Positions 54-54,205 of a stretch of DNA of 64,000 nucleotides are shown here, one piece after another. The translations under genes and the position numbers were made by a program. The notes beneath the pieces are model-generated. The model made no database searches, was not told where the DNA came from, and saw only the letters and a list, made by a program, of their open reading frames with translations. Each line of letters starts with the position of its first letter. Positions within the stretch are counted from its first letter, which is position 1. This stretch comes from Vicinamibacterales bacterium (GTDB lineage Bacteria; Acidobacteriota; Vicinamibacteria; Vicinamibacterales; UBA8438): assembly GCA_965243615.1 (NCBI GenBank), contig CBDEVO010000003.1:2690701-2754700 (forward strand). Reading direction: 5' to 3'.

Positions 54-947
54 GTGCTCGCGGCCGCCGTCGCCGCCCCCGCCGCTCTCGCGCAAGCCCC
101 GACCGAGTTCGTTCCCGTCACCGACGCGATGCTGCAGGCGCCGGCGCCCGACGACTGGCTGATGTGGCGGCGCACCCTCGACGGCTGGGGCTACAGCCCC
201 CTCGACCAGATCGACCGCGACAACGTGGGTGATCTGCGGATGGTGTGGTCGCGTGCGCTCAGCGCCGGCGGCCGGCAGCAGGGCACGCCGCTCGTCTACG
301 ACGGCGTCCTCTACATGCCCAACCCGAGTGACGTCATCCAGGCCATCGACGCCGCCACCGGGGACCTCCTCTGGGAGTACCGCCGCGACCTCCCCGACGA
401 CGCGTGCGAGCGCATCATGCCCGGCGTCTGCACGACGAACCGGAACCTCGCCATCTACGAGAATCTCATCATCGACACCAGCGTCGACGAGTACATCTTT
501 GCCCTCGACGCGCGGACGGGGGAGCTGGTCTGGGAGACGCAGGTCCTCGACTACACGACCCATCCCGCGAACCAGAGCACGGGGCCCATCGTCGCGAACG
601 GCAAGGTCGTCTCGGGCCGGAGCTGCATGCCGGCGGCGGGGCCCGAGGCCTGCGTCATCACCGCCCACGACGCGTGGACGGGCGAGGAGCTGTGGCGGCG
701 CCGCACCACCCCCGCCCCCGGCGAGCCGGGCGACGAAACCTGGGGCGGCGTGCCCGACCAGGACCGCCGGCACGTCGGCACGTGGATGGCCCCGAGCTTC
801 GACCCCGCGCTGAACCTGCTCTACATCGGCACCTCGGTGACCTCGCCCGCGCCGAAGTTCATGGTGGGCGGCGCCGACCTGACCCACCTCTACCACAACT
901 CGACGCTGGCCCTGGATGCCGACACCGGCGAGATCGCCTGGTACTAG
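54..947 (+). pseudogene. PQQ-dependent (quinoprotein) dehydrogenase, N-terminal ~300-aa fragment; frame ends at TAG 945-947 created by the island junction
   Basis: Frame is open to the window edge (RRLPGLVLAAAVAAPAALAQA signal-like). Propeller repeats are visible: DGVLYMPN..AIDAATGDLLWEY, ALDARTGELVWET, ALDADTGEIAWY. The same protein continues at 54198-55049. Confidence 0.85.
934..946. repeat. 13-bp direct repeat TCGCCTGGTACTA, left copy (putative attL core)
   Basis: Identical 13-mer at 54193-54205. Both copies lie in the same codon phase of the split dehydrogenase gene (..IAWY|). Confidence 0.75.
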
Positions 948-1248
948 GTGAAGATCGAGAATACCGCAACAAAGACGGGCTCTTGTGGAGCTTCGCGATC
1001 ACCCTATACCACGTTTCGGACCACGCGATGATTCCAGTCCAGAGCGGTCCATGAAAATCCGCGGCGGCCGCGGCGGTTGCGGCGGTGCGGCGGTAACCGT
1101 TCGGCGAAGCCGGTATGGGCCGTAACGATCCGCGCGGGTGCCGTCGCGGGCCGCAACGCCTCCACTGCTCTATCATGCACCCACCGCCGACCGCGCGGCT
1201 GCCGTTTGCGTCATACTGTTGCACCGGATCATTTTCAGCGGAGGGACC

Positions 1249-2802
1249 ATGGCGGCGACGACGATCAACGTGGGGTGGCGGGGTCGGGCGCGCTCGTTCG
1301 TATGGCTTCTGACGGCTACCGTGCTGCTGGCGGCAATCGGGGCGTGCGGGGATGCGGGCGTTCAGGACGAGGCGCGGCCGGCAGACGGCGTCCCGGCGCC
1401 CCCGGACGTGGGTCCGACCACCGCCGCGGAGTCGCCCGACGGGTCCCCGTCGGACGAGGCGCCGAGCTCGGTCCGCGTGATGCTGAACGGCGAGGAGCTG
1501 CCGCCCGAGCTCGCGGCCGCCTTCCTGCAGGCGATGGGGGACCGGGGCTCGCTGCCGGCCGAGGTGGCGGAGGGACTGCCCGGACGACGCAGTCCGAATG
1601 TCGAGGCCGCGCCGTCGCCGGCCGACGTCGGCCCGGACTGGTCGGTGGTGAAGGAGTACCTCGACCAGCAACGGGCGTGGAGGGAGAGCAACCGACAGGG
1701 TGCGCCCCCCTCCGGGGACGTCTCGAGCGAGGAACGCGTCCGGGCCATGACGGAGCGCCTAGCCGACCGGCCCGACGTGGGCCGCGCCGCGGCGGCGGCG
1801 AAGGCCATCCTGGAGCAGGACGGCGCGCACGAGAAGACGGTCGAAGCGGCGGAGTTCCTCGCCTTGCGCGTCCAGTCCGGCGGAGCTGTCGCCCAGAACA
1901 TGGTCGCGGGGGCGACGGGGCTGCTCAGGCACGCGCCCGACTACGAGGGCTGGCCGCGGGTGCTGAGCGCGATGGAGAGCCGCTCGTTCCTGGGACCGGA
2001 AATCGGCGCGTTCTTCGAGGAGTTGGCGACCGGGGCCGAGGACCCCGTGCTGCGCGCCACCGGCCGGTATTACGTGGCGGCCGGGCTCACGCAGGCCGCC
2101 AACGGAGGATCCCGGTTCGGTCTGCGCTCCGGCTGGACGTCCCTCTCCGCGTCGTTGGCGGAGAGCGAGGCCAAGCGGCAGAGCGCCCTCGAGGCGGCGG
2201 CGGGCTTGAGCGCGGGGGTGGAGGAGAAGCGGTTCCTGGGGACGTTCCCGGACAGTCGCTCCTCGGAGATGACCCTGGCGGAGGCCGAGGCGGACCTGAT
2301 TCGCAGCATCCGGCACGGGACCGTCGGCGGCACCCTGCCCGAAGTGACCGGCACGCGGGTCGACGGGGTGGAGGAGTCCCTGTCGGACTATCGGGGACGG
2401 GTCGTGCTGCTCGACTTCTGGGCGACCTGGTGCGTGCCGTGCATCGACGTGCTGCCGGACCTCAGGAAGCTGGTGGCGGAACTGCCGGCGGACCGGTTCG
2501 CCCTCGTGGCGATCAGCGTGGACGAGGAGCTCGAGACCGTGACCCGGTTCATGGAGGACGAACCGATGCCGTGGACGAACTGGCACGCGGGCCTGGGGAG
2601 CGACATCGCCCGGCTCCTGCGCGTCCAGGCGTATCCCACCTACGTGCTCGTCGACGAGACCGGCAGGATCCTGGCCAAGCCCATGGGGCGGTTCGAGGAG
2701 ATCGCTATTCCTCCCGGCGTGCCGGCGGACAGCTTCCCGGGTCGGCCTCCCAGCCTTCCCGCCCTGATCAGCGAGGCGCTGGCCGGACTCCCGCCGGCGT
2801 GA
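1249..2802 (+). CDS. Lipoprotein with C-terminal TlpA/ResA-like thioredoxin-fold thiol:disulfide oxidoreductase domain
   Basis: GGAGGGA Shine-Dalgarno before ATG 1249. Lipobox LLAAIGAC. C-terminal motif GRVVLLDFWATWCVPC (CxxC) ..AYPTYVLVDETGRI. Confidence 0.8.
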   Translation: MAATTINVGWRGRARSFVWLLTATVLLAAIGACGDAGVQDEARPADGVPAPPDVGPTTAAESPDGSPSDEAPSSVRVMLNGEELPPELAAAFLQAMGDRGSLPAEVAEGLPGRRSPNVEAAPSPADVGPDWSVVKEYLDQQRAWRESNRQGAPPSGDVSSEERVRAMTERLADRPDVGRAAAAAKAILEQDGAHEKTVEAAEFLALRVQSGGAVAQNMVAGATGLLRHAPDYEGWPRVLSAMESRSFLGPEIGAFFEELATGAEDPVLRATGRYYVAAGLTQAANGGSRFGLRSGWTSLSASLAESEAKRQSALEAAAGLSAGVEEKRFLGTFPDSRSSEMTLAEAEADLIRSIRHGTVGGTLPEVTGTRVDGVEESLSDYRGRVVLLDFWATWCVPCIDVLPDLRKLVAELPADRFALVAISVDEELETVTRFMEDEPMPWTNWHAGLGSDIARLLRVQAYPTYVLVDETGRILAKPMGRFEEIAIPPGVPADSFPGRPPSLPALISEALAGLPPA

Positions 2803-2807
2803 TTCGG

Positions 2808-2834
2808 TGGATATGGGGCCCGGCCCCATGTCCA
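2808..2834 (+). terminator. Inverted repeat (13-nt arms, 1 mismatch) just after the TlpA-like stop codon
   Basis: TGGATATGGGGCC c GGCCCCATGTCCA. There is no T-run, so terminator function is uncertain. Confidence 0.35.
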
Positions 2835-2959
2835 TACCCGGTAGAGTCGACGACTGGCGCGGTGGCGGTAGGCGGAAGGGGGTAGCTGTTCCCGGCGGCT
2901 TTCGCCAAGTGCCGGTGCCTCACTCCCCGCCGTGGCTCCGTTTCCAGTCGCCGCTCATC

Positions 2960-2992
2960 GAACCGGACGTGCGGATCTCCCGCATCCGGCTC
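2960..2992 (-). ncRNA. Group II intron domain V
   Basis: Minus strand reads GAGCCGGAUGCGGGAGAUCCGCACGUCCGGUUC. This is a 33-nt hairpin matching the DV consensus (GAGC..AUG..GNRA-type loop..GUUC), just downstream of the IEP stop. Confidence 0.85.
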
Positions 2993-3002
2993 TCGGACGA
3001 GA

Positions 3003-4343
3003 TCATGCCTTCGCCCACGGATGGCGCGCCGTTCGCGTGGCAAGGCGCGTGAGCCCGTACTCCGTCCAGAGTCGCTCGTACGGGAAGCGCACAGATTTCC
3101 CGTCTCGCACCTTGTGCTTGCGGCAGAGCCACTGGCGCAGCCGCCGCGTAGCGTGCTGGTCAACGGCGCGATACGCGGGACTGACCTGCCCGAGGGTGAA
3201 GTAGTTCGCCCAGCCGGTCAGCAACCGGTTCAGGCGCGCCACCACCTCGCTTGGCGGCAGGAGCGCGTCACGCCGTGTCGTCAGCTCGCTCACGCGACGG
3301 CAGATGCTCTGGACGCTCTCCCGGCTGGGGCGCGTGCCGATGTAGGCGGCACCCGTAAACGGCCGGTAGTTGCGCCCAATCCGGTAGCCGAGGAACGTCA
3401 TCGATTCCTCCGGCACCCGGCAGCATCGGGTCTTCTCGGCGTTCATCGGCAGCTTCAGACGCCGCATCAGCCCTTCGACCGCCGTCAGCATCTCTGCCGC
3501 CGGCGCTCGGCCGAGCACCGCGAAGTCGTCCGCGTAGTTGACGATTTCCGCCCCGAAGCGCCGGGCGTACCCCAGCACCTTCCAGCCCCGGATGAAGCGG
3601 CGCATGTAGACGTTGCTGAACAGCGGCGAAATCGGTGACCCTTGCGGGGTACCCTTCCGCTCGCGACGCGCACGGTTCGTCCGGTGGCGTCCGCCCCGAC
3701 CATCGTCCTCCTCGACCGCCATCTCCAGCCACGCCTTGACCCACCCCAACAGCCGACCGTCGCTCACGCGACGGGCGACCGATTTCAGCAGGTCCGCGTG
3801 CGGGATTTCGCCGAAGTAGTTCGTCAGGTCGGCGTCCACCACCTCCCGATGCCCGGTGTTCAGCAGCCGGTGTACGCGTCTGACCGCGTCATTCGCGCCC
3901 CGGCCCGGCCGGTAGGCGTATTGCTCCGGTTCGAGGTCCGCTTCGAAGATCGGCGACAGCACCAGCATCGCCGCCGTCTGCGCTACCCGGTCCCGGAGAC
4001 ACGGAATGCCTAACGGCCGGAACTTCCCGCGCTGCTTCTTCGGGATGAGCACCTGCCGGACCGCCTGCGGCCGGTAGGTCCCCTCCTTCAGGTCCCGCGC
4101 CAGAGATCCCAGCCACCCGTCCACCCCCTGCGATTCGACGTCCGCGACCGTCTCGCCGTCCACCCCGGCCGCGCCGCCGTTGCGGCGGACGGTCTGCCAG
4201 GCGACCGCGAGCACGTCGTCGCGCCACACCTTGTCGCTCAGAGAGTAGAACCGGAAGCCCGGAGCCTCCTTCGCTTTCGCATGTAGCGCCCTCTGGAGTC
4301 GCTGAACCCGTTCTGAGGCTGCTAGGCTTGCGCCAGTCCCCAC
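3003..4343 (-). CDS. Group II intron reverse transcriptase/maturase (IEP), no HNH endonuclease domain
   Basis: RT motifs: RPLGIPCLRDRVAQ, TPQGSPISPLFSNVYM, YADDFAV. Maturase X region: LNRLLTGWANYF. The C-terminus is short. Confidence 0.95.
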   Translation of the reverse strand: MGTGASLAASERVQRLQRALHAKAKEAPGFRFYSLSDKVWRDDVLAVAWQTVRRNGGAAGVDGETVADVESQGVDGWLGSLARDLKEGTYRPQAVRQVLIPKKQRGKFRPLGIPCLRDRVAQTAAMLVLSPIFEADLEPEQYAYRPGRGANDAVRRVHRLLNTGHREVVDADLTNYFGEIPHADLLKSVARRVSDGRLLGWVKAWLEMAVEEDDGRGGRHRTNRARRERKGTPQGSPISPLFSNVYMRRFIRGWKVLGYARRFGAEIVNYADDFAVLGRAPAAEMLTAVEGLMRRLKLPMNAEKTRCCRVPEESMTFLGYRIGRNYRPFTGAAYIGTRPSRESVQSICRRVSELTTRRDALLPPSEVVARLNRLLTGWANYFTLGQVSPAYRAVDQHATRRLRQWLCRKHKVRDGKSVRFPYERLWTEYGLTRLATRTARHPWAKA

Positions 4344-4838
4344 GTCCCTTCCTCCGTCATGCGCTGCTCTCGAACCGAGGCCCCTTCCCTCCGCCGGCGT
4401 TACCCGGCTTCCCCGGTACTACGGGCCCCTCCGCCACCCTGCTCGGCCCGACCCGACCCTCACGGGCTGTCGGTTGGCGCGTGCCACGCCACCGGCAGGG
4501 CTTCCCGTGTTGCGTCCATCCCCCTCTTCCACGCGTGCCGTCGCCACTACCCCGGCGGAACCGGCCGGTGCTCGCGTCGCTCGCTTCCCGGCCGCTGGCA
4601 GCCTTCCCCAAGTCGTGGGCGGGTCGGCTTCCGCATCACCGGTTTCGGGGCCTGCTCGGCGTTCACTCACGTTACGGCCCGCGTGGTCGCTGAGCCGCCA
4701 AGGCGGCCCTTGTCGTCGGAGTGCTTCAGTCGATGTCGTTACCTCCATCGCCCGCTCCGACTGCTACCGGCTGGAGCGACAGTTGCCGGGCGGGATTCGC
4801 ACCCGCTGAGGAACGGCGCCTTTCACGGCGCACCGCGA

Positions 4839-6700: not shown

Positions 6701-6724
6701 GAAGTCGGCACCGTAGAACGGCGC

Positions 6725-7763: not shown

Positions 7764-7805
7764 GATGACCTCCTCGTCTATGGAGTAGCGACCCCGACTG
7801 GCCAT

Positions 7806-20079: not shown

Positions 20080-20361
20080 ATGGAGGCTCTCACGCCGTGG
20101 TTGACGCCCGTCCTTCTGGTCGGGCTCTTCGTGTGGCTGCGGCGCGAACTGAACGGTCGCCTTGACAGATCAGAGAAGCGGCTCACCGACCGCATGGAGA
20201 AGATCGAGAAGCAGGTCGGCGAGCTGGCCAAGGACATGAACCAGCGGTTCGACCAGGTCAACCGCGAGCTGGCCGATCTGCGCGAGCGGATGGCGAAGCT
20301 CGAGGGCTCGCTCGAAGGGTTCCTCGCCGGCCGCCGCGACCGCGACGTCGCCCGACGATGA
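20080..20361 (+). CDS. Small membrane-anchored coiled-coil protein
   Basis: N-terminal TM WLTPVLLVGLFVWL, then heptad-like RLTDRMEKIEKQVGELAKDMNQRFDQVNRELADLRERMAKLEG. High GC3. Confidence 0.55.
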   Translation: MEALTPWLTPVLLVGLFVWLRRELNGRLDRSEKRLTDRMEKIEKQVGELAKDMNQRFDQVNRELADLRERMAKLEGSLEGFLAGRRDRDVARR

Positions 20362-20372
20362 GGATACAAACC

Positions 20373-21296
20373 ATGGAGAGCAACCCGACTCAGAGGACCG
20401 TGTTCATCACGGGTACGAACTCGGGCTTCGGCAAGGCCACCGTCGAACTGTTTGCGGCGAACGGTTGGAGGGTCGCCGCGACGGTGCGGAACAAGGATCG
20501 GCACGCGGACCTGTTCACGGAACTCGCGGGCGTCAAGCTGTACGAACTGGATGTGGACGACTTCACCCGGGTAGAGCAGGTCGCAGGCGAGGTCGTCAAC
20601 GACTTTGGTCGCGTCGACGTGGTGGTCAACAACGCCGGCTACTGCCTGATGGGGCCGACAGAGACCAGCACCATGGAACAGATCCGGAAGCAGTTCCAGA
20701 CCAACACTTTAGGCGTATTCGCCGTGACCAAGGCGTTCCTGCCCCACATGCGCGAGGCGGGCGGCGGGACCATCATCAACATCGCATCCGCGAGCGCTGT
20801 GTTCAACTACCCCTTCATCGCCGCCTACGGCGCAAGCAAGTGGGCGGTCCGCGGTCTGACCGAGAGCCTGGCCGTCGAGCTCGCCCCGTTCAACATCCGC
20901 GTCAAGGGGATCTACCCGGGATTCCACGCGACCGGGATCTTCACCAAGCTCGATCAGGGGACCGCGGATGAAGGCCCCGAGTACCGACTCTACAAGCCTT
21001 ACTACGCCAATTTCCTCTCGGCACAGAAGGCCCTGCCCAGTGCGGGAAGCCCGGACAGAATCGCCCGGACGATTTATCGCGCGGCGACGAACCCGGCCGG
21101 AAGGCCGCACATCGTGTCCGGGGCGGACGCTAAGCTGCTGGCGTTCATCAAGCGCGTGCTGCCACAGCGGGCGTTCCTGCGCTTCCAGACGCGCTCGATT
21201 CTGTCGCCTATCTCGAAAACGCAGGCGGCATTCATGAGGTTCACCTTCGGCAAGAACCAGCAACCGTTGCGCATGGACCTGCCCGAAGACTTGTGA
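20373..21296 (+). CDS. Short-chain dehydrogenase/reductase (SDR) family oxidoreductase
   Basis: TGTNSGFGKA (TGxxxGxG), NNAG, and S..YGASKWAV (YxxxK). Confidence 0.9.
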   Translation: MESNPTQRTVFITGTNSGFGKATVELFAANGWRVAATVRNKDRHADLFTELAGVKLYELDVDDFTRVEQVAGEVVNDFGRVDVVVNNAGYCLMGPTETSTMEQIRKQFQTNTLGVFAVTKAFLPHMREAGGGTIINIASASAVFNYPFIAAYGASKWAVRGLTESLAVELAPFNIRVKGIYPGFHATGIFTKLDQGTADEGPEYRLYKPYYANFLSAQKALPSAGSPDRIARTIYRAATNPAGRPHIVSGADAKLLAFIKRVLPQRAFLRFQTRSILSPISKTQAAFMRFTFGKNQQPLRMDLPEDL

Positions 21297-21575
21297 TTAA
21301 CCGCGCCCGGGGCTCCGGGGACGGGGTGGGTCGCGCGGGCGAGCGGCTGCACGCCCGTCCCCGGGTCGTCTGCGGAAGGGGGCGAGATCCTACGTCAAGC
21401 GGGGGTGCTACATCAGCGAGCAGTACGGTTGGCTATTCGAGCCTGCGCGCCTCGAGTACGACGGCGGGCGGCTCGTCATCCTCAAGACCACCGCCGACGG
21501 TACGGCCGAGAGCTGGACGGAGGTAGGGGGACCCGGCGCTGATCGCTCCGGACGATCATCGACAGAGGAGGCGAC

Positions 21576-22190
21576 ATGAGCGAAGCAGTCACCGTGACTC
21601 TGGGACGCGACCCGGCCCAGCGACGGCGGGCGACCTACCAGGATGTGCTCGATGCCCCCGCCCATCGGGTCGCCGAGGTCGTTGACGGCGTGCTCCACAC
21701 GAATCCGCGGCCGGCCATGCCGCATTCTTTGGCGAGTTCCCGACTGGGCGGCGAACTCACGGGACCATTCGATCGGGGTCGCGGCGGCCCCGGCGGATGG
21801 TGGATCATCTTCGAGCCCGAGCTGCACTTGGGCGAGGATATCCTCGTGCCCGACCTCGCCGGTTGGCGGCGGGAGCGGATGCCTGTCTTTCCCGATGCGC
21901 CGTACGCCACGCTGGGCCCCGACTGGGTGTGCGAAGTGCTCTCGCCGTCGACCCGCAAGCTGGACCTCCACGGCAAGCGCGACGTCTATGGGCGTGAACA
22001 GGTGGGTCATCTCTGGCTCGTCGACCCCGCCGACCGCACCCTGGAGGCCTTCGAACTGCGCGAGGGCGAATGGGTGCTGATCGCCACCGCGCAGGATGAC
22101 GCCCCCGTCAGCATCCGCCCCTTCGACGCCGTCACCTTCAGCCTCGGCGATCTCTGGCCGCCGAATGTCGCCCCGGCCGAGGGGGGCTGA
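21576..22190 (+). CDS. Uma2-family (DUF820) putative endonuclease
   Basis: GAGGAGG Shine-Dalgarno. VPDLAGWRRERMP, PDWVCEVLSPSTRKLDLHGKRDVYGREQVGHLWLVDP. Confidence 0.85.
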   Translation: MSEAVTVTLGRDPAQRRRATYQDVLDAPAHRVAEVVDGVLHTNPRPAMPHSLASSRLGGELTGPFDRGRGGPGGWWIIFEPELHLGEDILVPDLAGWRRERMPVFPDAPYATLGPDWVCEVLSPSTRKLDLHGKRDVYGREQVGHLWLVDPADRTLEAFELREGEWVLIATAQDDAPVSIRPFDAVTFSLGDLWPPNVAPAEGG

Positions 22191-22225
22191 CGACACGATC
22201 TTCGTGCTCGACGGCGTGCTGTACC
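22188..22225 (+). repeat. 38-bp direct repeat, copy B (overlaps the Uma2 stop codon)
   Basis: TGACGACACGATCTTCGTGCTCGACGGCGTGCTGTACC. Confidence 0.8.
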
Positions 22226-22241
22226 ATAGAAACGAGGACGG

Positions 22242-22769
22242 TCAGTTCGGAAAACCCCGCGTCAGAAGTCCATCGAGCGCCAGCTTGAACCACGCAGTGT
22301 ATCCCGTCGGACGCTCCGCGAACTCCCTTTGAATCGTGGGCACGGTCGCCCACTTCCATTCCTCCACTTCTTGGTCGTCCGGTGCCGGAACACCACAGAA
22401 CCGCCCAATCAGCACGTGATCGAACTCATGCTCCACGAGTCCGCCGTCCGTTGCTGCCCGGTACACGAAGCCGAACACGACCCGCAGCGGGCAGTTGAAC
22501 CCCATTTCCTCCTTCAACCGGCGCTCAGCAGCCCCAATCAGGGACTCTCCCGCCCTCGGATGGCCGCAACAGGTGTTGGACCAGAGACCGCCCGAGTGGT
22601 ACTTGCCGGCCGCGCGCTTCTGCAACAGCAGGCGGTCGGTTTCGTCGAAGACGAAGATCGAGAACGCCCGGTGCAGGATTCCGTTCCGGTGAGCCGCCAT
22701 CTTCTCCACGACTCCCGTTTGCCGGTCGTCGCCGTCGACGGCAATCAGGAGCGTATCGGAATCCTGCAT
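22242..22769 (-). CDS. idi: Isopentenyl-diphosphate delta-isomerase, type 1 (Nudix)
   Basis: HRAFSIFVFDETDRLLLQKRAAGKYHSGGLWSNTCCGHP..AAERRLKEEMG..LVEHEFDHV. The catalytic Cys and Glu contexts are present. Confidence 0.9.
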   Translation of the reverse strand: MQDSDTLLIAVDGDDRQTGVVEKMAAHRNGILHRAFSIFVFDETDRLLLQKRAAGKYHSGGLWSNTCCGHPRAGESLIGAAERRLKEEMGFNCPLRVVFGFVYRAATDGGLVEHEFDHVLIGRFCGVPAPDDQEVEEWKWATVPTIQREFAERPTGYTAWFKLALDGLLTRGFPN

Positions 22770-22848
22770 GGGTGTTCACCTCTTAACCGCGGCATCGACG
22801 GAATCGTCGACTGGATGTTTGCCGCCGGGAAGTCGTCGGCCCGCCGGG

Positions 22849-24117
22849 TCACCATTCTCGCGAATCTTCCTCGAACACCGAGGTCGGCAGGCTGTAGGAA
22901 TGCTCGTACTCGCCGAGATTCGAGACTTCGAGCATGCTCCTGAACCGCGACCTCGACCGATACGCGGCCAGCGGCGGCGCGAGCCTCCGCAGCATCCTGT
23001 CGCCGAAATTGCGCAGCCGCAGCAGCGGAAGCTCCTTCTTCAGTCTTCCGGCGGGGAACCTCAGCTCGTCGGCCAGCCCGTCCCCGATCATTTCCCGCGA
23101 CACCTGGTACATGTACTTCGCCATGGCGCGCCGCGCCTTGGGTTCGGTGAACCCCAGAACGATCGGCGCGCTGTTGACGATGCTGTTCGCCATGATGATC
23201 GCGTCCTCGTCGGGCCGCGGCTCGCACAGCGCTCCAATCTCGAACCACCTGACCGACGAGGCGTAGTCCCGGAACAGGATCTCGTCGGGTATCCCCATGA
23301 GGCGGCCGGTGTACCGCCAGACGTGCACGTACCCCTCGCGTTCCCGGTCGCTGAAATCTCCGCCGAGGTTCGATACATGCTGCAGCAGCCTCCCCGAGAA
23401 GGCGGCGGCGCCGAGCAGCATGTGCGCCGCGCTGAGGGGGACCCCGTATACCGACCGGTCCCATTCGTCGGAAGTCGAGACCAGCCGCCTCGCCTGCGCG
23501 TGCACGAGCCGGATCCTGAGGCTCAGCTTCCACCCGTCGCCGCCCGGCTCGATGCCTCCGGGCAGGTACTGTTCCAGGAGCTGCAGCAGGTTCTGCTTGA
23601 GCCGCCGCACGCCGTTCGTCATGATGCGGCTGCGAATGCGGAACGACTTGCTGATGAGCGTGGAGAAGCCCTCGATGATGGCGCCGCCCACCAGGGCGCC
23701 CATCACCATCTCGGAGTTGCGAAGGAAGGCCCGGGTCGCGTCGCGGGCGAGATCGCGGTCGAACCAGTCGGGCACGACGCCCGAGTCAGCAATCAGGTCA
23801 CGCAGCGACTTGGGCGTGTCGGCCGGCAGATCGCTGAAGCTGTCGAGCGTCCTCGCGATGATTCCGTGCACGTCCGCCGGCGACGCGTTCGCCGCCAGCT
23901 CGGCGACCACCGCGTCGGCCACCGGGTCCCCCAGGGTCGTGTGGCGGATGTACCTCTCGGCCAGCACGGGGTCGACCTTGCGGGCGGTTTCGTAACCGGC
24001 GACGTAGGCGGTCGGGATGTTCATCATGCCGGAGAAACGCTCGGTGAGGGGGGGTGCGCAACGAGGAGCGGAACCGCCTGCGTCGGGTGAACGCGGCGGC
24101 GCGGTCATCGCCGTCAC
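22849..24117 (-). CDS. MpaB/Lcp-family oxygenase (DUF2236)
   Basis: ..WKLSLRIRLVHAQARRLV..GVPLSAAHMLLGAAAF..YVHVWRYTGRLMGIPDE. A GTG start at 24117 overlaps the upstream P450 stop (GTGA). Alternative ATG starts at 24108 and 24027. Confidence 0.7.
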   Translation of the reverse strand: MTAMTAPPRSPDAGGSAPRCAPPLTERFSGMMNIPTAYVAGYETARKVDPVLAERYIRHTTLGDPVADAVVAELAANASPADVHGIIARTLDSFSDLPADTPKSLRDLIADSGVVPDWFDRDLARDATRAFLRNSEMVMGALVGGAIIEGFSTLISKSFRIRSRIMTNGVRRLKQNLLQLLEQYLPGGIEPGGDGWKLSLRIRLVHAQARRLVSTSDEWDRSVYGVPLSAAHMLLGAAAFSGRLLQHVSNLGGDFSDREREGYVHVWRYTGRLMGIPDEILFRDYASSVRWFEIGALCEPRPDEDAIIMANSIVNSAPIVLGFTEPKARRAMAKYMYQVSREMIGDGLADELRFPAGRLKKELPLLRLRNFGDRMLRRLAPPLAAYRSRSRFRSMLEVSNLGEYEHSYSLPTSVFEEDSREW

Positions 24118-25514: not shown

Positions 25515-25533
25515 CGCGATGTCCTTCTTCGAA

Positions 25534-26907: not shown

Positions 26908-26993
26908 CGATCGCCGTTCCTTTCCTGTTTCCCTTCCCGCACTCCGCGCCCGCCGCCCGCGTCGCAACGCGCCGCGCCCGTCCGCGCGCCGTG

Positions 26994-30215: not shown

Positions 30216-31453
30216 CGGTCCGCTCCCGGTCCGGTGCGCACCGCCATGCCCTCGGTGGCCACCTGAAGCCCGCCCACGACGACGGCGTCGCCTTCCCGGA
30301 GGGGGCCGGTCACGAACAGGGCGTCGTCCGCGCGCTGCAGCACGCGCACGGGGACAATCGCCACCCGGCCTCCGCGCACCACCCAGACCTCGTCACCGGG
30401 CCTGAGGGCCGGGCGCCGAACCCGGAAGTAAGTGTCCGGGGCAATCCCCTGAATCTCGACCTCAACGAACATGCCCAGCAGCAGCGGCGGGCCTCCGGAC
30501 GGCACCGGCCCGCCGCCGCCGCTACCAGTCCCGCTGTCGCGCGCGTCCGCCGGGACACCGGCGGTGAACGGCCGCGGCACGCGGACGATCACGTCCAGCG
30601 TCCGCGTCTGTTCGTCGAGGGCCGTCTCCACGCGGTCCGCGTACCCCGGCCAGGCGTAGCGGCCGACACCGTGCTCGGCGACCACGCGAACCGGGATCCG
30701 CCGGTCTGCCTCACCGGCCCGCAGGCTCCACAGGTCTGGCACGAGGGCGGCGTCCGCGTCGGACAGCGGAACCACGACCTCGACCGCGTCGGAGGCGTAC
30801 AGCCGTCCGACGCTCTCGCCGGCGGCCACGACCTGACCGGCGTCGAGGGACTCGATCCGCACCACGCCGTCGAACGGCGCGCGGACCTCGGTCCGGGACA
30901 GCGCCAGCTCGGCGTCCGCCAACTCGGCGTCGTGCCGGCGCAGAACCGCCTGCGCCGCCTCCAGCTGCGGCTGCCAGAGAGCCAGCGGGCCTGCATCCGC
31001 CGCCGGGGCGCCGTCCGCGCGGCGGCGCCGGAAGGCCTCGTACTGCGCACGCGCGATGCGCGCCTCTTCCTGGATGCGAAGAATCTCCACCTGCTGAACC
31101 GCGATGTCGGACCGCACCTGTTCGACACGGTTGCGGTAGCCGGCATCGTCGATGCGGAAGATGGCCTGTCCCTTGCCGATCCGCCCGCCGCTCTGAAAGG
31201 CCGGCTCCACCCAGGTGACCCGGCCCCCGACCTCGGCCGCGATATCGATCTCGGCGTGGGCCCGGACCGTGCCGGCGGCCAGAACGGGAATGGCGCCGTC
31301 GCCGGCAACCACCGGCTCGGTGACCGCGAACGGCGCCCGCGGGGGCGGCTCCCGGCGCTCGGGCGCCGGGCGCGTGGAGATCAGGTAGCCGGCCGCGGCC
31401 AGCGATCCGGCCAGCAGGGTCACGACCATGACGAATCGCGGCAGTCGGCCCAT
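30212..31453 (-). CDS. RND efflux periplasmic adaptor (MFP/HlyD family)
   Basis: N-terminal TM, alpha-hairpin (IAVQQVEILRIQEEARIARAQYEAF..), beta-barrel C-terminus. 4-nt overlap with the RND gene. Confidence 0.9.
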   Translation of the reverse strand: MGRLPRFVMVVTLLAGSLAAAGYLISTRPAPERREPPPRAPFAVTEPVVAGDGAIPVLAAGTVRAHAEIDIAAEVGGRVTWVEPAFQSGGRIGKGQAIFRIDDAGYRNRVEQVRSDIAVQQVEILRIQEEARIARAQYEAFRRRRADGAPAADAGPLALWQPQLEAAQAVLRRHDAELADAELALSRTEVRAPFDGVVRIESLDAGQVVAAGESVGRLYASDAVEVVVPLSDADAALVPDLWSLRAGEADRRIPVRVVAEHGVGRYAWPGYADRVETALDEQTRTLDVIVRVPRPFTAGVPADARDSGTGSGGGGPVPSGGPPLLLGMFVEVEIQGIAPDTYFRVRRPALRPGDEVWVVRGGRVAIVPVRVLQRADDALFVTGPLREGDAVVVGGLQVATEGMAVRTGPGADR

Positions 31454-32992
31454 CTATCCGCTTCGCCCCTCGGTCGGGGTGGAGGCCGGCACGATGCGCG
31501 GCCCCGCCCTCAAGTCCGACGCGACCCAGCCCCCGCCCAGGGCGCGGTGGACCGCAAGCCTGGCCAGCGCCACGTCCCGCTCGCCGCCGGCGAGCGCCGA
31601 CTCCGCGTCGAGGAGAGTGCGCAGTGCGTCCAGGAAATCCGCGTAGCCTCCAACGCCCGATCCGTACCGCTCCGCCCGGAGATCGACTTCGGCCTGCGCC
31701 TCCTCCCGCCGGGATTCGAGCAGGGCGCGGCGCCGGTCCTCGTATCGCATCCCCGCCAGCGCGGTTTCGACCTCGTTGACCGCCGTCACCACGGTGCGTC
31801 CGTAGGCGGCGGCCGCCTCGTTGAAGCGGGCCTCCGCAAGCGTGACGTTGCTCCGAAGCCGGCCGCCGTCGAAGACCGGCAACAGCAGATTCGCGGCCAG
31901 GTTGCTGAACCACTGATGGACGTTGAAGAGTCCGGCGACCTGCGAGTTCTGCAGCCCGAGGGTCCCGGCGAGGGTGAGCGAGGGGCGAAGCTCGGCGCGG
32001 CGGACCTCAATGTCGTAGCCGGCCGCTTCCAGTCGGTGTCCGGCGGCCCTCACGTCCGGGCGCTGGTGCAGGAGATCGGCCGGAATCCCCGCCGGAACGG
32101 CGGTCGCAACCGGCGACGGGGACGGGGAGTCCCCGAGTAGCTCCTCCAGGTCGCGCCGGTAGCCGCCCAGCATCACCACCAGGCGTCCCTCGGCGCCGGA
32201 CAACCGATGCTCCAGTTGCGGAAGCCGCGCCTGCGTGTCGAGCAGATCCTGGCGGACCCTGTAGGTGTCCAGGGAATCCGACAGCCCGCGACGGTAGCGC
32301 GTCTCCGCCACCGCCTCCCGCTCCTGGAGCACATCGACCGTCTCGCGGAGGAGCACGACTTGTCGGCGGTAGCCGACGATCTCGAAGTACGAGGCGATGG
32401 TCTCGGCGACGATGCCGATGCGGGCCGCCCGAAAATCCGATTCCGAGGCCAGATACGCGGCTCCGTCGGCGAGCCGGCTGCTGTCGGCGCGCCCCCAGAA
32501 ATCCAGCTCGTAGGCGAAGTCGGCGCCCAGCGAAAAGGTGGTGAGCCCCAGTCGATCGGGCAACGTGAAATCGTCCGTCGCGACGCCGAGCCCTTCGCCG
32601 AGTCCCAGCTCCTGGAGTTGCGCCCCGATGCCGGCGTTGGTCGGCGAGCTGAAGTCGTCGACGGACGCGCGAGCCCGTATCGTGGGGAGAAACGCGGCGC
32701 GCGCGATGCGGGCCGCTTCCCGCGCCTGCTGCACGCGCGCAACCGCCACCGCCATGTCGTGGTTGGAGGTGAGCACCGACTCGACGATCGTGTCGAGCAT
32801 CGGGTCGGCGAAGGCCCGCCACCATTCGACCGAATCGTACGCTCCCGTCTCCTCGCTGTTGCTGAACTCGGCGGGCAGTTCGTCGGCAATGGCCGTCGGC
32901 GACGACACGATCGGCTCGGGAAGCCGGGTCCCGGGCGCGAGCGAACACGCAGAGAGGACGCAACCCGCAAACAGCAGCGGGGCAGTCGACAT
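31454..32992 (-). CDS. Efflux outer-membrane factor lipoprotein (NodT/TolC family)
   Basis: Start at ATG 32992 gives MSTAPLLFAGCVLSAC (lipobox). Duplicated OEP repeats. Abuts the MFP start. Confidence 0.9.
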   Translation of the reverse strand: MSTAPLLFAGCVLSACSLAPGTRLPEPIVSSPTAIADELPAEFSNSEETGAYDSVEWWRAFADPMLDTIVESVLTSNHDMAVAVARVQQAREAARIARAAFLPTIRARASVDDFSSPTNAGIGAQLQELGLGEGLGVATDDFTLPDRLGLTTFSLGADFAYELDFWGRADSSRLADGAAYLASESDFRAARIGIVAETIASYFEIVGYRRQVVLLRETVDVLQEREAVAETRYRRGLSDSLDTYRVRQDLLDTQARLPQLEHRLSGAEGRLVVMLGGYRRDLEELLGDSPSPSPVATAVPAGIPADLLHQRPDVRAAGHRLEAAGYDIEVRRAELRPSLTLAGTLGLQNSQVAGLFNVHQWFSNLAANLLLPVFDGGRLRSNVTLAEARFNEAAAAYGRTVVTAVNEVETALAGMRYEDRRRALLESRREEAQAEVDLRAERYGSGVGGYADFLDALRTLLDAESALAGGERDVALARLAVHRALGGGWVASDLRAGPRIVPASTPTEGRSG

Positions 32993-33099
32993 CACGGCCA
33001 ATGGACTCGACGACCCCGGCGCGCCAGCAGCCGCATTCGCGTTTGCACCCCGTTGGCGAAGCACCGCCAATGAATACCACAATCCAGACGGTCGGCAAA

Positions 33100-34272: not shown

Positions 34273-35001
34273 ATGACCAGCACCCGCGTCCGCAACATGG
34301 GGAGGGACCGGTTCCGCGACGGCGACGGGTCCGCCGGACGGCCGAGCCGAGGGGCGAATCCGCTCCGGGACGACCGGCCGATACGAGTCGACTCCGAGAT
34401 CGTCGTGCGCTCGATCGACAGCGGCGGCTCGACCATCCGCGCTCTGCGGGTGACGACGAGCTTGCGCCTGCAGGGCTCGGCGCTGGCCGCGGCGCTGGCG
34501 AGCCCGGCCGTGAGCTCGGCCCTCGCCGACGTGTCGTATCGCACCGGCGCCGGCCACACGACGGGGGTGTCCGTCGTCTACCAGCAGGTCGAGCCCCTGA
34601 CGACGGTCGTCCGCGAGTCGGCCGTGAGCGCCGGGCAGGAGTTCGAGGTCGCGTGGCGAGGCGCCGACGGCCTTCTCGACCAGATGCCGGACCCCGAGCC
34701 CATCGACGGCAGTCCGACGCGCGCCGTCGTCGACTGGCACGAGGTGGGGAAGCACGCATCCGACTTCTACGACGACGAGCGCTCGATGCCGGCCCTCGCC
34801 GACCGGGAGGTGCTGCGCCGGCGCGGCCGCGTGACGGTCAGGCGCGGGTTCCTGCGCCCGCCGATGTCGGCCGAGGCCGTCGCGCGCATGGTCGAGCTTC
34901 GCGCCCAGGGCCTCGGCTTCAAGCGCATCGCGCGGGCGGTCGGCTGCGCGCCCATCACGGTGTCCCGTTACCTGCGCAGCTTCGAGGAGGAGGGTCGATG
35001 A
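34273..35001 (+). CDS. Hypothetical protein with C-terminal resolvase/Hin-type HTH
   Basis: AGGAGG Shine-Dalgarno. High GC3. C-terminus: MSAEAVARMVELRAQGLGFKRIARAVGCAPITVSRYLRSF. Confidence 0.65.
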   Translation: MTSTRVRNMGRDRFRDGDGSAGRPSRGANPLRDDRPIRVDSEIVVRSIDSGGSTIRALRVTTSLRLQGSALAAALASPAVSSALADVSYRTGAGHTTGVSVVYQQVEPLTTVVRESAVSAGQEFEVAWRGADGLLDQMPDPEPIDGSPTRAVVDWHEVGKHASDFYDDERSMPALADREVLRRRGRVTVRRGFLRPPMSAEAVARMVELRAQGLGFKRIARAVGCAPITVSRYLRSFEEEGR

Positions 35002-40516: not shown

Positions 40517-42615
40517 CGATAGCCCAAGTTTACCAAGTTGACCGGCCATTTTGACGATTTTGGCCCTATTTCGGGGTTGTCGTGTCTGTAAGTTGTTGAT
40601 TATAAAGGACCGGGGCCTGAGAAAACGCGATGTAGTGCCATAATTTTATATAACGGGTTGACTTCGGCAGGGGCGCCCGATATCGTGGCCATCGTGTTCA
40701 TTCGCCGCACTCAGACACGGCGCACACACGACGGAAAGCCCTACTTCGCCCATCGCCTCGTCCACAGCGAGCGCGTCGGAAACAATGTCCGGCAGCGCAC
40801 CCTGCTCAATCTCGGGCGCCATTTCGACATCCCCCAGGCCCAATGGCCGCAGTTGTGCGCCCGCATCGAAGACCTCTTGTCCGGTCAGGCGCTCCTCGTC
40901 GCCGAGGGCCCGCGCGCCGTCGAACACGAAGCCCAGCGCATCGCCGCGCACTTGGTTGCCCGCGGCGCGCCGGTGAGCGGCGCGGCGGCCGGACCGGTCG
41001 ACGTACAGCGCGTCGATGTCGATTCCCTGCGTCTGGTCCGCCCGCGCAGTGTCGGGGTCGAGCAGGTCGGCCTGTGGGCCCTTGAGCAATTGGGGCTGCC
41101 GGCCCTGCTCGCCGACCTCGGCGTCAACGGCGCCCTGCGCGCAGCCGCGGCCGGCGTCATCGTCGGCCGTCTCGCCCAGCCCGCCTCGGAGCGGGCGACC
41201 CACCGCTGGCTGGCTGAGCGCAGCGGCCTCGGGGAGTTGCTCGGCGTCGACTTCGAGACCGTCGGCGCGATGCAGCTCTACCGCGCCTCGGACGCGCTGG
41301 TGAAGCACCGCGAGGCGATCGAGGCGCATCTGTTCGACCGCGCGATGGGGCTGTTCGACATCCAGCCGACGGTGACCCTCTACGACCTGACCAACACCTA
41401 CTTCGAAGGCGAGGCGGGCGAGCAGCCGCAGGCGCAGCGCGGGCACTCGAAGGAGAAGCGCAGCGACTGCCCGCTGCTGACCCTGGGCCTCATGCTCGAC
41501 GCCAGCGGCTTCGTGCGCCGCTCCAAGGTCTTCGCCGGCAACGTCCGGGAACAGCGCACGCTGGCCGGCATGCTCGGGGCGCTCGGGGCGCCACCCGGCG
41601 CCCTCGTGGTCATGGACCGCGGCGTCGCCACCGAAGCCTGCATCCAGTGGTTGCGCGACCACGACTACCGCTACCTGGTCGTCAGCCGCGAACGTCACCG
41701 TCAATTCGACGCCGCGGCCGCCGTCTCGCTCCGGACCCGGTCCAACCAGACCGTGCACCTGCAGAAGGTGGTCTCGACCGACCCCGACGAGGTCCGCCTG
41801 TACTGCTACTCCGAAGAACGGGCCGAGAAGGAGCGGGGCATCGTCGAGCGTTTCGCCGCCCGCTTCGAGGCGGCCCTGACCCAGCTCCACGAAGGGCTGG
41901 CGCGGCCCCGCGCCCACAAGCGGCTCAACCAGGTGTGGCAGCGCATCGGGCGGCTGAAGACGAAGCACGCCCGCGTCGCCTCGCACTACCAGATCGAGGT
42001 CACCGCCGACGAGACCGGCGAGAAGGCGGTCGCCGTCACCTGGACCCGCCGTCCCCGGGACGGCTCAATGGTCACTCACCCGGGGGTTTACTGCCTGCGC
42101 AGCAGCGAGACCGAGTGGGACGAAGACGCCCTGTGGCGCACCTACACCACCCTCACCGACGTGGAGGCCGTGTTCCGCTCGCTCAAATCCGAGCTCGGCC
42201 TGCGCCCCATCTACCACCACAAGCCGCGCCGGGCCGACGGCCACCTGTTCATCACCGTCATCGCCTACCAACTCGTGCAGGTCATCCGCACCCGCCTGCG
42301 CGCACACGGCAACGCCGCCAGTTGGACGACGTTGCGCCGCATCCTGGACGGCCAGCACCGCGTCACCGCCACGTTCCGGCGTCCTGACGGGCGCACGCTG
42401 CACGTGCGCACGGCCACGCAAGCCGAACCCGGGCAGCGGGAACTCTACGACGCGCTCGGCGTCGACCCCCACCCCGGGGGCGTCCGCAAGACCGTCGTCT
42501 GACCGCCCCCCTCACCGGTTTGGTGCACGTTTGTAGTGCCACTCGGCGATTCTTGTCGCCGTAAGCCCTTTACTTGCAACAGGTTGGTTTTAGGGTTGGT
42601 AAACTCGGGATAGCG
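40517..42615 (+). mobile_element. IS1634-family (IS4-related) insertion sequence, ~2.1 kb
   Basis: Imperfect terminal inverted repeats: CGATAGCCCAAGTTTACCAAG (40517-40537) versus the reverse complement of 42595-42615, CGCTATCCCGAGTTTACCAAC (17/21). AT-rich promoter region and a single DDE transposase ORF. Confidence 0.75.
40658..42502 (+). CDS. IS1634-family DDE transposase
   Basis: TLYDLTNTYFEGEAGEQPQAQRGHSKEKRSDCPLLTLGLMLD..VVMDRGVATEACIQWLRDHDYRYLV..YTTLTDVEAVFRSLKSELGLRPIYH. Confidence 0.9.
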   Translation: MTSAGAPDIVAIVFIRRTQTRRTHDGKPYFAHRLVHSERVGNNVRQRTLLNLGRHFDIPQAQWPQLCARIEDLLSGQALLVAEGPRAVEHEAQRIAAHLVARGAPVSGAAAGPVDVQRVDVDSLRLVRPRSVGVEQVGLWALEQLGLPALLADLGVNGALRAAAAGVIVGRLAQPASERATHRWLAERSGLGELLGVDFETVGAMQLYRASDALVKHREAIEAHLFDRAMGLFDIQPTVTLYDLTNTYFEGEAGEQPQAQRGHSKEKRSDCPLLTLGLMLDASGFVRRSKVFAGNVREQRTLAGMLGALGAPPGALVVMDRGVATEACIQWLRDHDYRYLVVSRERHRQFDAAAAVSLRTRSNQTVHLQKVVSTDPDEVRLYCYSEERAEKERGIVERFAARFEAALTQLHEGLARPRAHKRLNQVWQRIGRLKTKHARVASHYQIEVTADETGEKAVAVTWTRRPRDGSMVTHPGVYCLRSSETEWDEDALWRTYTTLTDVEAVFRSLKSELGLRPIYHHKPRRADGHLFITVIAYQLVQVIRTRLRAHGNAASWTTLRRILDGQHRVTATFRRPDGRTLHVRTATQAEPGQRELYDALGVDPHPGGVRKTVV

Positions 42616-51488: not shown

Positions 51489-51665
51489 GCGTGTTCGTGC
51501 CCCCGTCCCAGACCGTGCTACTGGTTCCCAGGGTGTCATGTAATAATAAACTATTGCTAAACAACAACTTACGTCGTTCTTGTGCTAGGCTCGACCGTCA
51601 TGGTCCACGGCGAACCAACCACGTCGGTTCCGCCCGTCGGCGGGCCGCAACCACAGGAGGAAGAC

Positions 51666-51866
51666 ATGACGACGAGACTGCTCACGCTCCGCGACGTGAC
51701 GGCGATGACCGCACTGTCGCGCTCGGCCATCTACGCGCTGATGGCCGAGTCCCGGTTCCCGAAGCCGATCCGGGTCGGCGCCCGCGCGGTCCGCTGGGTC
51801 GAGCAGGAAGTGGCCGACTTCATCGCCAGCCGGCCCCGCGCCGGCTCCGAGCACCCGGCCGCGTAG
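51666..51866 (+). CDS. AlpA-family transcriptional regulator / excisionase-like protein
   Basis: GGAGGA Shine-Dalgarno. MTTRLLTLRDVTAMTALSRSAIYALMAESRFPKPIRVGARAVRWVEQEVADFI. Confidence 0.85.
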   Translation: MTTRLLTLRDVTAMTALSRSAIYALMAESRFPKPIRVGARAVRWVEQEVADFIASRPRAGSEHPAA

Positions 51867-52841: not shown

Positions 52842-52864
52842 CGCCGCGGGCCGGCTGTGGCGCC

Positions 52865-54007
52865 TTACTCCTTCTCGACGACGTACTCGGCCCAAGCGTC
52901 CATCAGCATGCGACGCTTCGCGAGGAGGTCGCCGCGACGGTACGCCCGCTCGACCGCGGAGCCCACCGCATGGGCCAGCGCCGTTTCGACGACGGCGAAG
53001 TCGTGGGCCGTCTCCTCCGATGCCCAATCGCGGAACGAGGAGCGGAAGCCGTGGATCGTGCCGGCGATGCCCTGCACCGTCCGGGTCAGCCCCATCTGCG
53101 ACAGGGCGCGGCCGGTGCGCTCGGAGGCGAACACGAACCCCCGCTTGTGCAACCCGCTTCGCTCGTCGAGGATCGCCAAAGCCGGGTCGCTCAGCGGCAC
53201 GACGTGCGCCCGCTTGCTCTTCATGCGTTCGGCGGGTAGCGTCCAGGTCCTGCCGCCCAAGTCGATCTCGTCCCACAGCGCCCCCCGAGCCTCAGCCGAC
53301 CGGGTGGCGGTCAGGACCAGAAAGGCGGCGCAGGCACGAGCGGAATCCGCGGCGTGACTGCCGAGAATGTTGCGGTACGCACTCGGAACATCGCGGTAAG
53401 GGACCGCTTCGTGGTGCCGCCTGACGCGCTCCTGGACCGGGAGAGCCGCCTTGATGCCGCCGTTGGCGGCGACGTTCTCGGAGACGTGGCCATGGGCGAG
53501 GCACCAGTCGAAGATGGCGCGTACTCGCTGGAGCGCCTTCCGGCTCTCGGCCGGCTTTGAGGTCCAGACGGGCTTGAGCACGCCGATGATATCCTGGCGG
53601 CTGATGGCGTTCACGCGATGCTGGCCGAGCACCCTGAGGACGTTGCAGCCCCGAAGCGGCTGCATGAACGCTCGGGCGCTGCTCTCGGACCACCGCCCGC
53701 GATTGGCCGCCAACGTCGCCTCGGCGGCGTCGCGGAACAGCGGCTTGACGTTGTGGGGAGCGGTGAAGGGATCACGGCCGTCGAGCCGGGCCGCCCGGCG
53801 GTTGGCCGACGCGATGGCCCGCGCCTCGGCGAGCGTCCGCAGGGGCCATCCCCCGAGGCCGCGGTCGACGCGCTTGCCGTTGACGGTGAGCCGCTGCACG
53901 AACGCCCGCGAGCCGGACGGCTGCACGACGACGAACAGGGTCTTGCAGTCCGAGTCCCCGTGGCGGCCTGCCTGCAACGTCCCGATCCGCCTCTGGGTCA
54001 GCTTCAT
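52865..54007 (-). CDS. int: Tyrosine site-specific integrase (P4-type, DUF4102 N-terminal domain)
   Basis: MKLTQRRIGTLQAG..TLFVVVQPSGSRAFVQRLTVNGKRVDRGLG. Catalytic residues: TATRSAEARGALW (R), HGFRSSFRDW (HxxR), ERAYRRGD (Y). Confidence 0.95.
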   Translation of the reverse strand: MKLTQRRIGTLQAGRHGDSDCKTLFVVVQPSGSRAFVQRLTVNGKRVDRGLGGWPLRTLAEARAIASANRRAARLDGRDPFTAPHNVKPLFRDAAEATLAANRGRWSESSARAFMQPLRGCNVLRVLGQHRVNAISRQDIIGVLKPVWTSKPAESRKALQRVRAIFDWCLAHGHVSENVAANGGIKAALPVQERVRRHHEAVPYRDVPSAYRNILGSHAADSARACAAFLVLTATRSAEARGALWDEIDLGGRTWTLPAERMKSKRAHVVPLSDPALAILDERSGLHKRGFVFASERTGRALSQMGLTRTVQGIAGTIHGFRSSFRDWASEETAHDFAVVETALAHAVGSAVERAYRRGDLLAKRRMLMDAWAEYVVEKE

Positions 54008-54192
54008 CGCACCCTCCCACGCCCAGTGTCATCCACGAACTATACCACGTTTTGATCACGGTTTCAGCGCGATTCCTGTGGACGCGCACGGATTGATCGG
54101 GACGCGGATATCGCCACAAGTAACAGAAAATGCTTGCTTTAGGTGGATAACATGGGAGTATCTCGGACCTCCAGCGACACTACACGTGTAGT

Positions 54193-54205
54193 TCGCCTGG
54201 TACTA
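54193..54205. repeat. 13-bp direct repeat TCGCCTGGTACTA, right copy (putative attR core)
   Basis: Identical to 934-946, ~190 bp from the integrase start. Confidence 0.75.

Follow-up and report, generated by a model that had tools for sequence, protein, structure and literature searches.

A window of 64,000 nt (the whole stretch of DNA that was analyzed) from a Vicinamibacterales bacterium (Acidobacteriota, soil; contig CBDEVO010000003.1, positions 2,690,701-2,754,700) very probably contains a 53.26-kb integrative mobilizable element (IME) which has been integrated by a tyrosine recombinase into the coding sequence (CDS) of a periplasmic, pyrroloquinoline quinone (PQQ)-dependent alcohol dehydrogenase, and whose integrase clade repeatedly targets this codon position. 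The element is well supported and of a known, fairly common kind; its target, a PQQ-dehydrogenase gene, was previously unlisted. Labels such as L001 designate the contigs or loci which were retrieved for comparison, and coordinates on each of them are its own.

The two halves of the dehydrogenase gene are found on either side of the inserted DNA (Table 1). As stated in the initial annotation of this DNA, the left reading frame (3..947) terminates as ..DTGEIAWY-TAG, the stop codon (945-947) being composed of the TA of the core repeat and of the first base of the element, and the sequence is resumed in the same codon phase at 54198 with TGG TAC TAC, which encodes WYY. The in silico deletion of 947-54205, which had been claimed to restore a quinoprotein, does so: fusion of 3-946 to 54206-55049 leads to an in-frame and stop-free sequence of 595 aa, reading ..GEIAWYYQHLNDHWDLD.. 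across the join. The colinearity of this fused protein had been set beforehand as a check, and PF01011, the structure 4CVB and the intact orthologs were all found to align across the junction. The Pfam PQQ profile PF01011 (E=1e-60) covers residues 52-383 in a single stretch, crossing the junction at residue 315, and crosses it only in the fused protein. Similarly, the PQQ alcohol dehydrogenase structure 4CVB aligns without interruption at the junction (28-592 to 5-571, E=5e-128), while 9M2C, 7WMD and 4MH1 are likewise single end-to-end matches (E=1e-119 to 1e-128, 4CVB included). By this full-length colinear match to profile and structures, the reconstructed protein belongs to the quinoprotein alcohol dehydrogenases, which fold as an eight-bladed propeller. 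Intact orthologs of ~601 aa, retrieved from a large protein database, cover 97-100% of the fused protein with 93-97% identity, and a scan of species-representative genomes assigned intact orthologs to Vicinamibacterales metagenome-assembled genomes. At the level of each half, nucleotide identity of the 5' half (3..946) to intact orthologs is 92-94%, and amino acid identity of the 3' half to the intact gene in L012 is 99.6%.

The insert is bounded by the 13-bp direct repeat TCGCCTGGTACTA. The initial annotation had placed these repeats at the two junctions, and they are indeed exact and present in exactly two copies in the window, with no further core-like site even when one mismatch is allowed; the expectation from shuffled sequences is 0.02 matches, and at least two copies occurred in 0/100 shuffles. 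A composite or tandem element was ruled out, as the window has no additional core-like site and the scanned open reading frames (ORFs) include only one integrase. The empty site, for which a search in relatives had been suggested, was found with one core copy in L001, L002 and other loci. In L001, a Vicinamibacterales chromosome of 6.49 Mb, window 8-946 corresponds to 6033-6974 and window 54190-55018 to 6959-7787, so that the two intervals are adjacent and overlap by the core, of which a single copy (TCGTCTGGTACTA) is present in a site reading ..GAGATCGTCTGGTACTACCAGCAC... The same arrangement was found in L002, L006, L009, L010 and L012, with DNA identities of 92-97%. Because all close empty sites read TCGTC, versus TCGCC in both window copies, identity over the full 13 bp appears to be specific to this host/element pair; CGCCTGGTACTACC is carried by 7/82 intact homolog loci. 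These 82 loci comprise 80 from GTDB species-representative genomes and the empty-site contigs L001 and L002. All of them (82/82) keep TGGTAYTAYCARCA, which corresponds to the WYY-Q codons, at this position, so that empty sites are the norm, and 48/82 carry the exact 10-mer CTGGTACTAC, the core which is common to all six of the related junctions described below.

The insertion point falls on the codons for (I)-A/V-W-Y-Y, ~10 residues upstream of a WDLD motif. The latter is encoded at window 54225-54236 (protein ..NDHWDLDHPF..), and the aligned residues of 4CVB read WDSE. D-x-D at this position is the signature of lanthanide-dependent PQQ dehydrogenases.

Integration is predicted to inactivate the targeted gene copy, since a TAG is made at attL, no start codon or N-terminal replacement is provided at attR and the island holds no substitute gene. 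On the right side, an in-frame TAG (54189-54191) precedes the 3' half, the earliest in-frame start codon of which is a GTG at 54267. Self-BLAST of the window revealed no PQQ-dehydrogenase homolog within the island, which rules out replacement by an island-borne enzyme. As related genomes contain several paralogs (2 or 3 in a single genome, with 72-76% identity), the loss of this copy is probably tolerated. When aligned by codon to 11 intact orthologs, neither half contains a frameshift or a stop codon, and the codon changes specific to the window lineage are 16 synonymous and 2 nonsynonymous, a pattern similar to or better than that of the intact orthologs. This ratio, together with the lack of decay, implies either an insertion which is recent on the scale of the terminal branch, or continued selection on the gene.

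The integration module lies just inside the right repeat, where the initial annotation had recognized a P4-type integrase and an AlpA-like gene; domain architecture, the PF05930 match and the catalytic residues all bear out this assignment. The integrase exceeds the Pfam gathering cut-offs for PF13356 (36.9 bits), PF22022 (50.3 bits) and PF00589 (47.2 bits), and has weak PDB matches to the N-domain of a CP4-like integrase (3JTZ) and to an integrase central domain (2KHV). Its residues R236, K263, H319, R322, H346 and Y356, the R-K-H-R-H-Y set, are invariant in a family alignment of 22 sequences. A sigma-70-like promoter, which abuts attR, precedes the gene and is conserved across the family, TGGTAnnnT recurring at the corresponding position ahead of int in L005, L086, L087, L168, L169 and L170. 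The -10 element of this promoter overlaps the right copy (54040-54052, 140 bp inside attR) of a second 13-bp motif, CTATACCACGTTT, which is invariant there in L003 and L004 and of which the window holds two copies only, even with 2 mismatches (0.07 expected). The left copy was rejected as an outward-facing promoter: its -10 reads TATAGG and was left unscored by the promoter scan. These two motifs are candidate arm-type integrase-binding sites, one of which would allow autoregulation. The AlpA-family protein is, in turn, a candidate excision or recombination directionality factor, or a regulator; in the relatives L005, L086, L168 and L169, alpA directly follows int.

With its integrase domains (PF13356 and PF00589) and an AlpA-family gene in the module, the element resembles P4/CP4-57 islands, and the Pfam name of PF05930 is itself "Prophage CP4-57 regulatory protein AlpA". 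Textbook members of this group enter the 3' ends of tRNA or tmRNA genes and regenerate them. In contrast, the clade of the window element integrates mid-CDS and its target is not regenerated. No tRNA was found at either window junction or in L003-L005, which rules out a tRNA gene as the target.

Five relatives of the integrase, located on separate contigs (in ERZ25069580, ctg105507_14x_l of 901 kb for L004 and ctg99911_6x_l of 58 kb for L003), were found beside a 3' fragment of a PQQ-dehydrogenase gene: L171 (96% integrase identity), L003 (95%), L004 (88%), L170 (63%) and L086 (60%). These integrases sit ~190-290 bp from the fragment and are transcribed divergently from it, and all five fragments start at the same codons as in the window (..VWYYQHLND(H/S/D)WDLDHPFER..). 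Among the five comparable target fragments (of six, window included), protein identity is 68-75%, and the L171 fragment matches another intact paralog, that of L084, at 93.5% identity. Because the targets share only 68-75% identity and are all cut at the same WYYQ codons, the six junctions are best read as separate events in which integrases of one clade, with a specificity for WYYQ DNA, entered different genes of this family, the clade being delimited by pairwise identity (60-100%).

The relatives also share part of their backbone with the window. The attR-proximal DNA of L003 and L004 is ~90-95% identical to that of the window, and both carry int and the HTH_23 gene, L004 additionally the 3' end of the relaxase gene, with differing cargo. 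In L004, window 19587-19671 directly abuts window 33642-34323, and the 14-kb block 19672-33641 is missing; the cargo block thus appears to be a module acquired between the relaxase and HTH_23 genes. A bactofilin gene of the island (6044-6675) has 95% DNA identity to L004 869-1501, which is not part of the L004 element but is located beyond the PQQ fragment, towards the chromosome; flanking host DNA may have been captured in the past, or elements may have exchanged DNA.

Sister integrases from L005 (66%) and L168 (72%) abut a different target, a truncated ORF (L005 4269-4835; L168 1864-2418) ending ..IYLDPPYGIKFNSN and located downstream of ResIII/RE_endonuc genes. This ORF has no Pfam or NCBIfam match, and its similarity to the EcoP15I Mod subunit in the PDB, over a ..IY(L/I)DPPY.. 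motif, is non-significant (E=0.78). It may encode a type III modification methylase which is interrupted just past DPPY, and would then represent a second coding-motif target in the clade.

In JGI metagenome contigs, integrase relatives were found at 34-44% identity only. None of their loci (0/80) shows a PQQ fragment beside the integrase, and in 9/80 the integrase directly adjoins a tRNA gene, mostly tRNA-Ser. While these distant relatives would be in line with an accidental, off-target insertion by a tRNA-targeting integrase, the same codon-level junction is found on six separate contigs with integrases which are 60-100% identical, and the junctions examined are devoid of tRNAs. An assembly chimera is hard to reconcile with two junctions which both map precisely to a single position in the empty site. 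Either explanation is thus extremely improbable, and insertion by a clade which targets this codon position is retained.

The claim that the element is mobilizable was borne out by the presence of a MobA/MobL relaxase (PF03389, 51.3 bits versus a cut-off of 26.7). A Pfam search over ~55 ORFs across 947-54205 found no VirB4, coupling protein or other family of type IV secretion systems (T4SS), some short or unscanned ORFs remaining. With an integrase, core repeats and a relaxase of its own, and no T4SS or coupling protein among the scanned ORFs, the insert fits the label of a predicted IME. In the literature on streptococcal IMEs (reviewed in Guedon et al., 2017; PMC5704250; PMC5357655), such elements likewise combine an integration/excision module with a relaxase and lack a mating pore, and they are presumed, as is the window element, to hijack a conjugative element. 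Unlike the streptococcal IMEs, the window element is found in another phylum, has relaxase and integrase lineages of its own and a much larger cargo, and its mobilization is predicted.

Several observations weigh against this interpretation of the insert as a mobile, site-specific element. The relaxase reaches 52.9 bits against an NCBIfam MobQ equivalog cut-off of 200, and oriT was not identified in the island. No isogenic empty site was available, the nearest ones being 93-96% identical in DNA, and attL is known from the window alone, the five related elements being seen at attR only, which leaves the extent of the crossover loosely bounded. In addition, three related integrases (L003 1474-2274, L004 5001-5729 and L168 2583-3741) were called as truncated or split by 1-2-nt indels, which may be sequencing errors of 6-15x long-read assemblies. 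The arm sites and the excisionase are assignments inferred from sequence. Finally, a nested group II intron, a nested IS1634-family element and the duplicated segment of the relaxase gene could accompany a loss of mobility.

These last features raise the question of whether the insert is a fixed genomic island, i.e., the relic of an integration, no longer mobile, whose cargo is vertically inherited. The relaxase gene contains an in-frame 1.1-kb tandem duplication (15882-16992/16982-18096), the copies of which are 91% identical by self-BLAST. Together with the large and heavy cargo, the nested mobile DNA and the location of alpA outside of the int-alpA arrangement of the relatives, this duplication would suit such a relic. 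However, the integrase ORF is not truncated and retains every catalytic residue, its promoter is intact and the two 13-bp cores are identical, while the disrupted gene shows no decay, pointing to a recent insertion or to continued selection. Moreover, integration modules with 88-96% integrase identity are found in different targets, which indicates that the family has moved recently. A fixed island is hence unlikely, and an element which is still equipped for mobility is favored. As a side observation, the duplication makes the relaxase unusually long, with a repeated coiled/acidic segment.

Insertion within a protein-coding gene had been termed unusual in the initial annotation. While the target is indeed mid-CDS and not a tRNA, this wording was overstated, as such attB sites represent a known minority behavior: in the TIGER survey, a protein domain is disrupted by 410/3308 integrative elements outside of t(m)RNA genes, with repeated events of this type in 24 tight integrase clades, which the authors treat as candidates for regulated gene integrity (PMC7192596). 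The window element is like these domain-disrupting elements in that one clade has repeatedly inserted at one position of a Pfam domain and does not restore the gene. It differs in its target, which is a multi-copy paralog family and not a single regulatory or developmental gene, and in its host, which belongs to the Acidobacteriota. PQQ-dehydrogenase is not named as a target in the text of this survey or in its examined supplementary files (PMC7192596), and literature searches yielded nothing on attB sites within PQQ genes or on integrative elements of Vicinamibacterales.

The initial annotation proposed that excision would act as a genetic switch for the enzyme. In its strongest form, this would be regulated gene integrity, i.e., a reversible or developmental switch in which controlled excision restores the PQQ-dehydrogenase when needed, to the benefit of the host. 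The operational definition of Mageeney et al. (2020) covers the present case: the domain is disrupted without restoration, with TAGs at both junctions and no PQQ homolog in the island, and at least two independent integrations by a tight clade at one domain position are represented by the six WYYQ junctions, the clade being defined by identity. The gene halves are also in frame, with a pattern resembling purifying selection, and both an intact integrase and perfect core repeats are present. However, a recent insertion explains the missing decay equally well. The target family is made of multiple paralogs (2-3 copies with at least 72% identity per related genome) and the clade enters different ones, which looks like the use of a landing pad rather than the control of one gene. 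In addition, the sister subclade adjoins an unrelated truncated gene, which suggests that conserved coding motifs are used as targets more generally. Regulated gene integrity is thus very unlikely here. Multi-paralog targeting fits a conserved motif used as a widely available and low-cost landing site at least as well as a switch, and the term "genetic switch" holds only as a formal possibility, in that precise excision would restore the ORF. A broader version, in which the element family would be a reversible switch for individual PQQ-dehydrogenase paralogs of Vicinamibacterales (possibly of the lanthanide type, given WDLD) and the clade may specialize in the DNA of conserved catalytic-site motifs, such as WYYQ in PQQ-dehydrogenases and, for the sister subclade, a methyltransferase-like DPPY, is conjectural and quite unlikely as well. 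The preferred reading remains that of a mobilizable element which uses the conserved codons as a landing site.

Classical examples of regulated gene integrity include skin in sigK, SPbeta in spsM, a Listeria phage in comK and the heterocyst elements of nifD, fdxN and hupL (PMC7192596). As in these systems, the window element is inserted mid-gene between short direct repeats and precise excision would rebuild the ORF. In contrast to the window element, which is known from its sequence alone, regulated excision has been demonstrated for the classical elements and tied to a physiological program. Several of them rely on serine recombinases or XisA-type enzymes, whereas the window element encodes an integrase of P4-like architecture. 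Another group, the dusA islands, has a dedicated tyrosine-integrase clade with an attB in a conserved protein-coding gene; insertion takes place near the 5' end, a replacement 5' end is supplied and dusA remains functional. A protein-coding attB and a dedicated clade are thus shared with the window element, whose target is cut mid-CDS with stop codons at both junctions.

A mechanism can be proposed for the life cycle of the element. The integrase would recognize a core centered on CTGGTACTAC, sequences carrying TCGYCTGGTACTAC serving as attB, and its arm-type contacts may include the subterminal AAACGTGGTATAG repeats. Excision would be promoted by AlpA or by the conserved HTH_23 protein. The relaxase would nick the excised circle, which would be transferred via the T4SS of a co-resident conjugative element and, in the new host, could integrate into whichever PQQ-dehydrogenase paralogs have retained the core.

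These data provide a precisely mapped integrase/attP/attB set from the Acidobacteriota, a phylum which is dominant in soils but resists genetic manipulation. Since the attB is short and conserved across the whole enzyme family (82/82 loci), genetic tools for these bacteria could make use of it as a natural landing pad. PQQ-dehydrogenases join the genes which are repeatedly interrupted by a dedicated integrase clade, and targeting a motif common to paralogs is one way in which mobile elements can have more than one integration site at their disposal in each genome. Should excision turn out to be regulated, this would be a rare case, from a major soil phylum, of a metabolic enzyme family controlled through gene integrity.

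Table 1. Features of the window, with strand and supporting evidence.
Feature	Position	Strand	Evidence
5' half of the PQQ-dependent alcohol dehydrogenase gene	3..946	+	N-terminal 314-315 aa; translation, Pfam, PDB colinearity
attL core copy TCGCCTGGTACTA	934..946	+	exact repeat; sits at the breakpoint relative to empty sites L001/L002
Inserted DNA	947..54205	.	53,259 bp including one core copy; missing from the orthologous loci of L001, L002 and L006-L012
Left copy of the 13-bp motif CTATACCACGTTT	1004..1016	+	58 bp inside attL; candidate arm-type site
Nested group II intron, approximate ends	2841..4833	-	Rfam RF02003 (4667-4808), RF00029 (2841-2994)
MobA/MobL (MobQ-like) relaxase, 1559 aa	14980..19659	+	PF03389 E=1.7e-13
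Cargo block: SDR, Uma2, NUDIX, MpaB/Lcp-like oxygenase, two cytochrome P450s, RND efflux triad	20358..33082	.	Pfam
HTH_23 DNA-binding protein, shared backbone	34273..35001	+	Pfam; 82-90% nt identity to L003, L004
Nested IS1634-family insertion sequence	40517..42615	+	transposase 40658-42502; NCBIfam transpos_IS1634 290 bits, above cut-off; DDE_Tnp_1
AlpA-family small HTH protein	51582..51866	+	PF05930 E=1.1e-17, 64 bits vs cut-off 21
Tyrosine integrase, 380 aa, P4/CP4-57-like architecture	52865..54007	-	Arm-DNA-bind_3 + Phage_int_M + Phage_integrase
int promoter, sigma-70-like, TG-extended, CTGAAA-17-TATAGT	54039..54067	-	promoter scan: 1 found vs 0.1 expected
attR core copy TCGCCTGGTACTA	54193..54205	+	exact repeat; maps to the empty-site breakpoint
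3' half of the PQQ-dehydrogenase gene (WYYQHLNDHWDLD.. to stop)	54198..55049	+	translation, ortholog identity

The island shows no GC anomaly, its content of ~70% GC being equal to that of the flanks. Within the cargo block, the cytochrome P450 genes are located at 24114-25514 and 25534-~27000, and the three-gene RND efflux system at 26994-33082. The block resembles a small oxidative or terpenoid-type tailoring cluster adjoining an RND pump, the NUDIX protein being similar to isopentenyl diphosphate isomerases. Other genes of the island encode a thioredoxin-like lipoprotein (1138-2802), the bactofilin, a VWA/TPR protein, an extracytoplasmic function (ECF) sigma factor, two MacB/FtsX-type permeases, an esterase, HU and a PP2C/SpoIIE phosphatase. 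The lipoprotein gene, which is the left-most of the island, has a 90% homolog in L172, in an ordinary chromosomal context with no PQQ fragment, and is thus considered as cargo which provides no second attL; a 99% homolog (P0241) is also present on a 73-kb contig.

The group II intron, just downstream of the lipoprotein gene, encodes a reverse transcriptase/maturase at 3003-4343 (RVT_1 and GIIM) and has its 5' end, GTGCG, at 4833. It is apparently complete, its Rfam matches corresponding to D1-D4 (4667-4808) and to domain V/VI (2841-2994). The IS1634-family element has candidate 20-nt terminal inverted repeats. Three direct-repeat pairs of 48-90 bp with 91-93% identity were also observed in the island (36463-36552/38037-38126, 34766-34837/37759-37829 and 19832-19879/22178-22225), the last of which brackets the SDR and Uma2 genes. 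A 235-bp segment at window 43977-44211 is 92% identical to L001 10306-10548, which follows an IS110-family transposase gene at a distance of ~170 bp, and may be the end of an insertion sequence or a remnant resembling a miniature inverted-repeat transposable element. In the same poorly coding stretch, ARAGORN calls an odd "tRNA-???" at 44894-44984.

Outside of the element, the region downstream of the PQQ-dehydrogenase gene is variable (window 55050-58150 versus L001 7807-12240 and L002 7807-8790). It contains two fn3-domain proteins in the window, a PhdYeFM toxin-antitoxin pair in L002 and an IS110 element in L001. Beyond this region, the Big_1/LVIVD, DUF58 and MoxR genes are syntenic.

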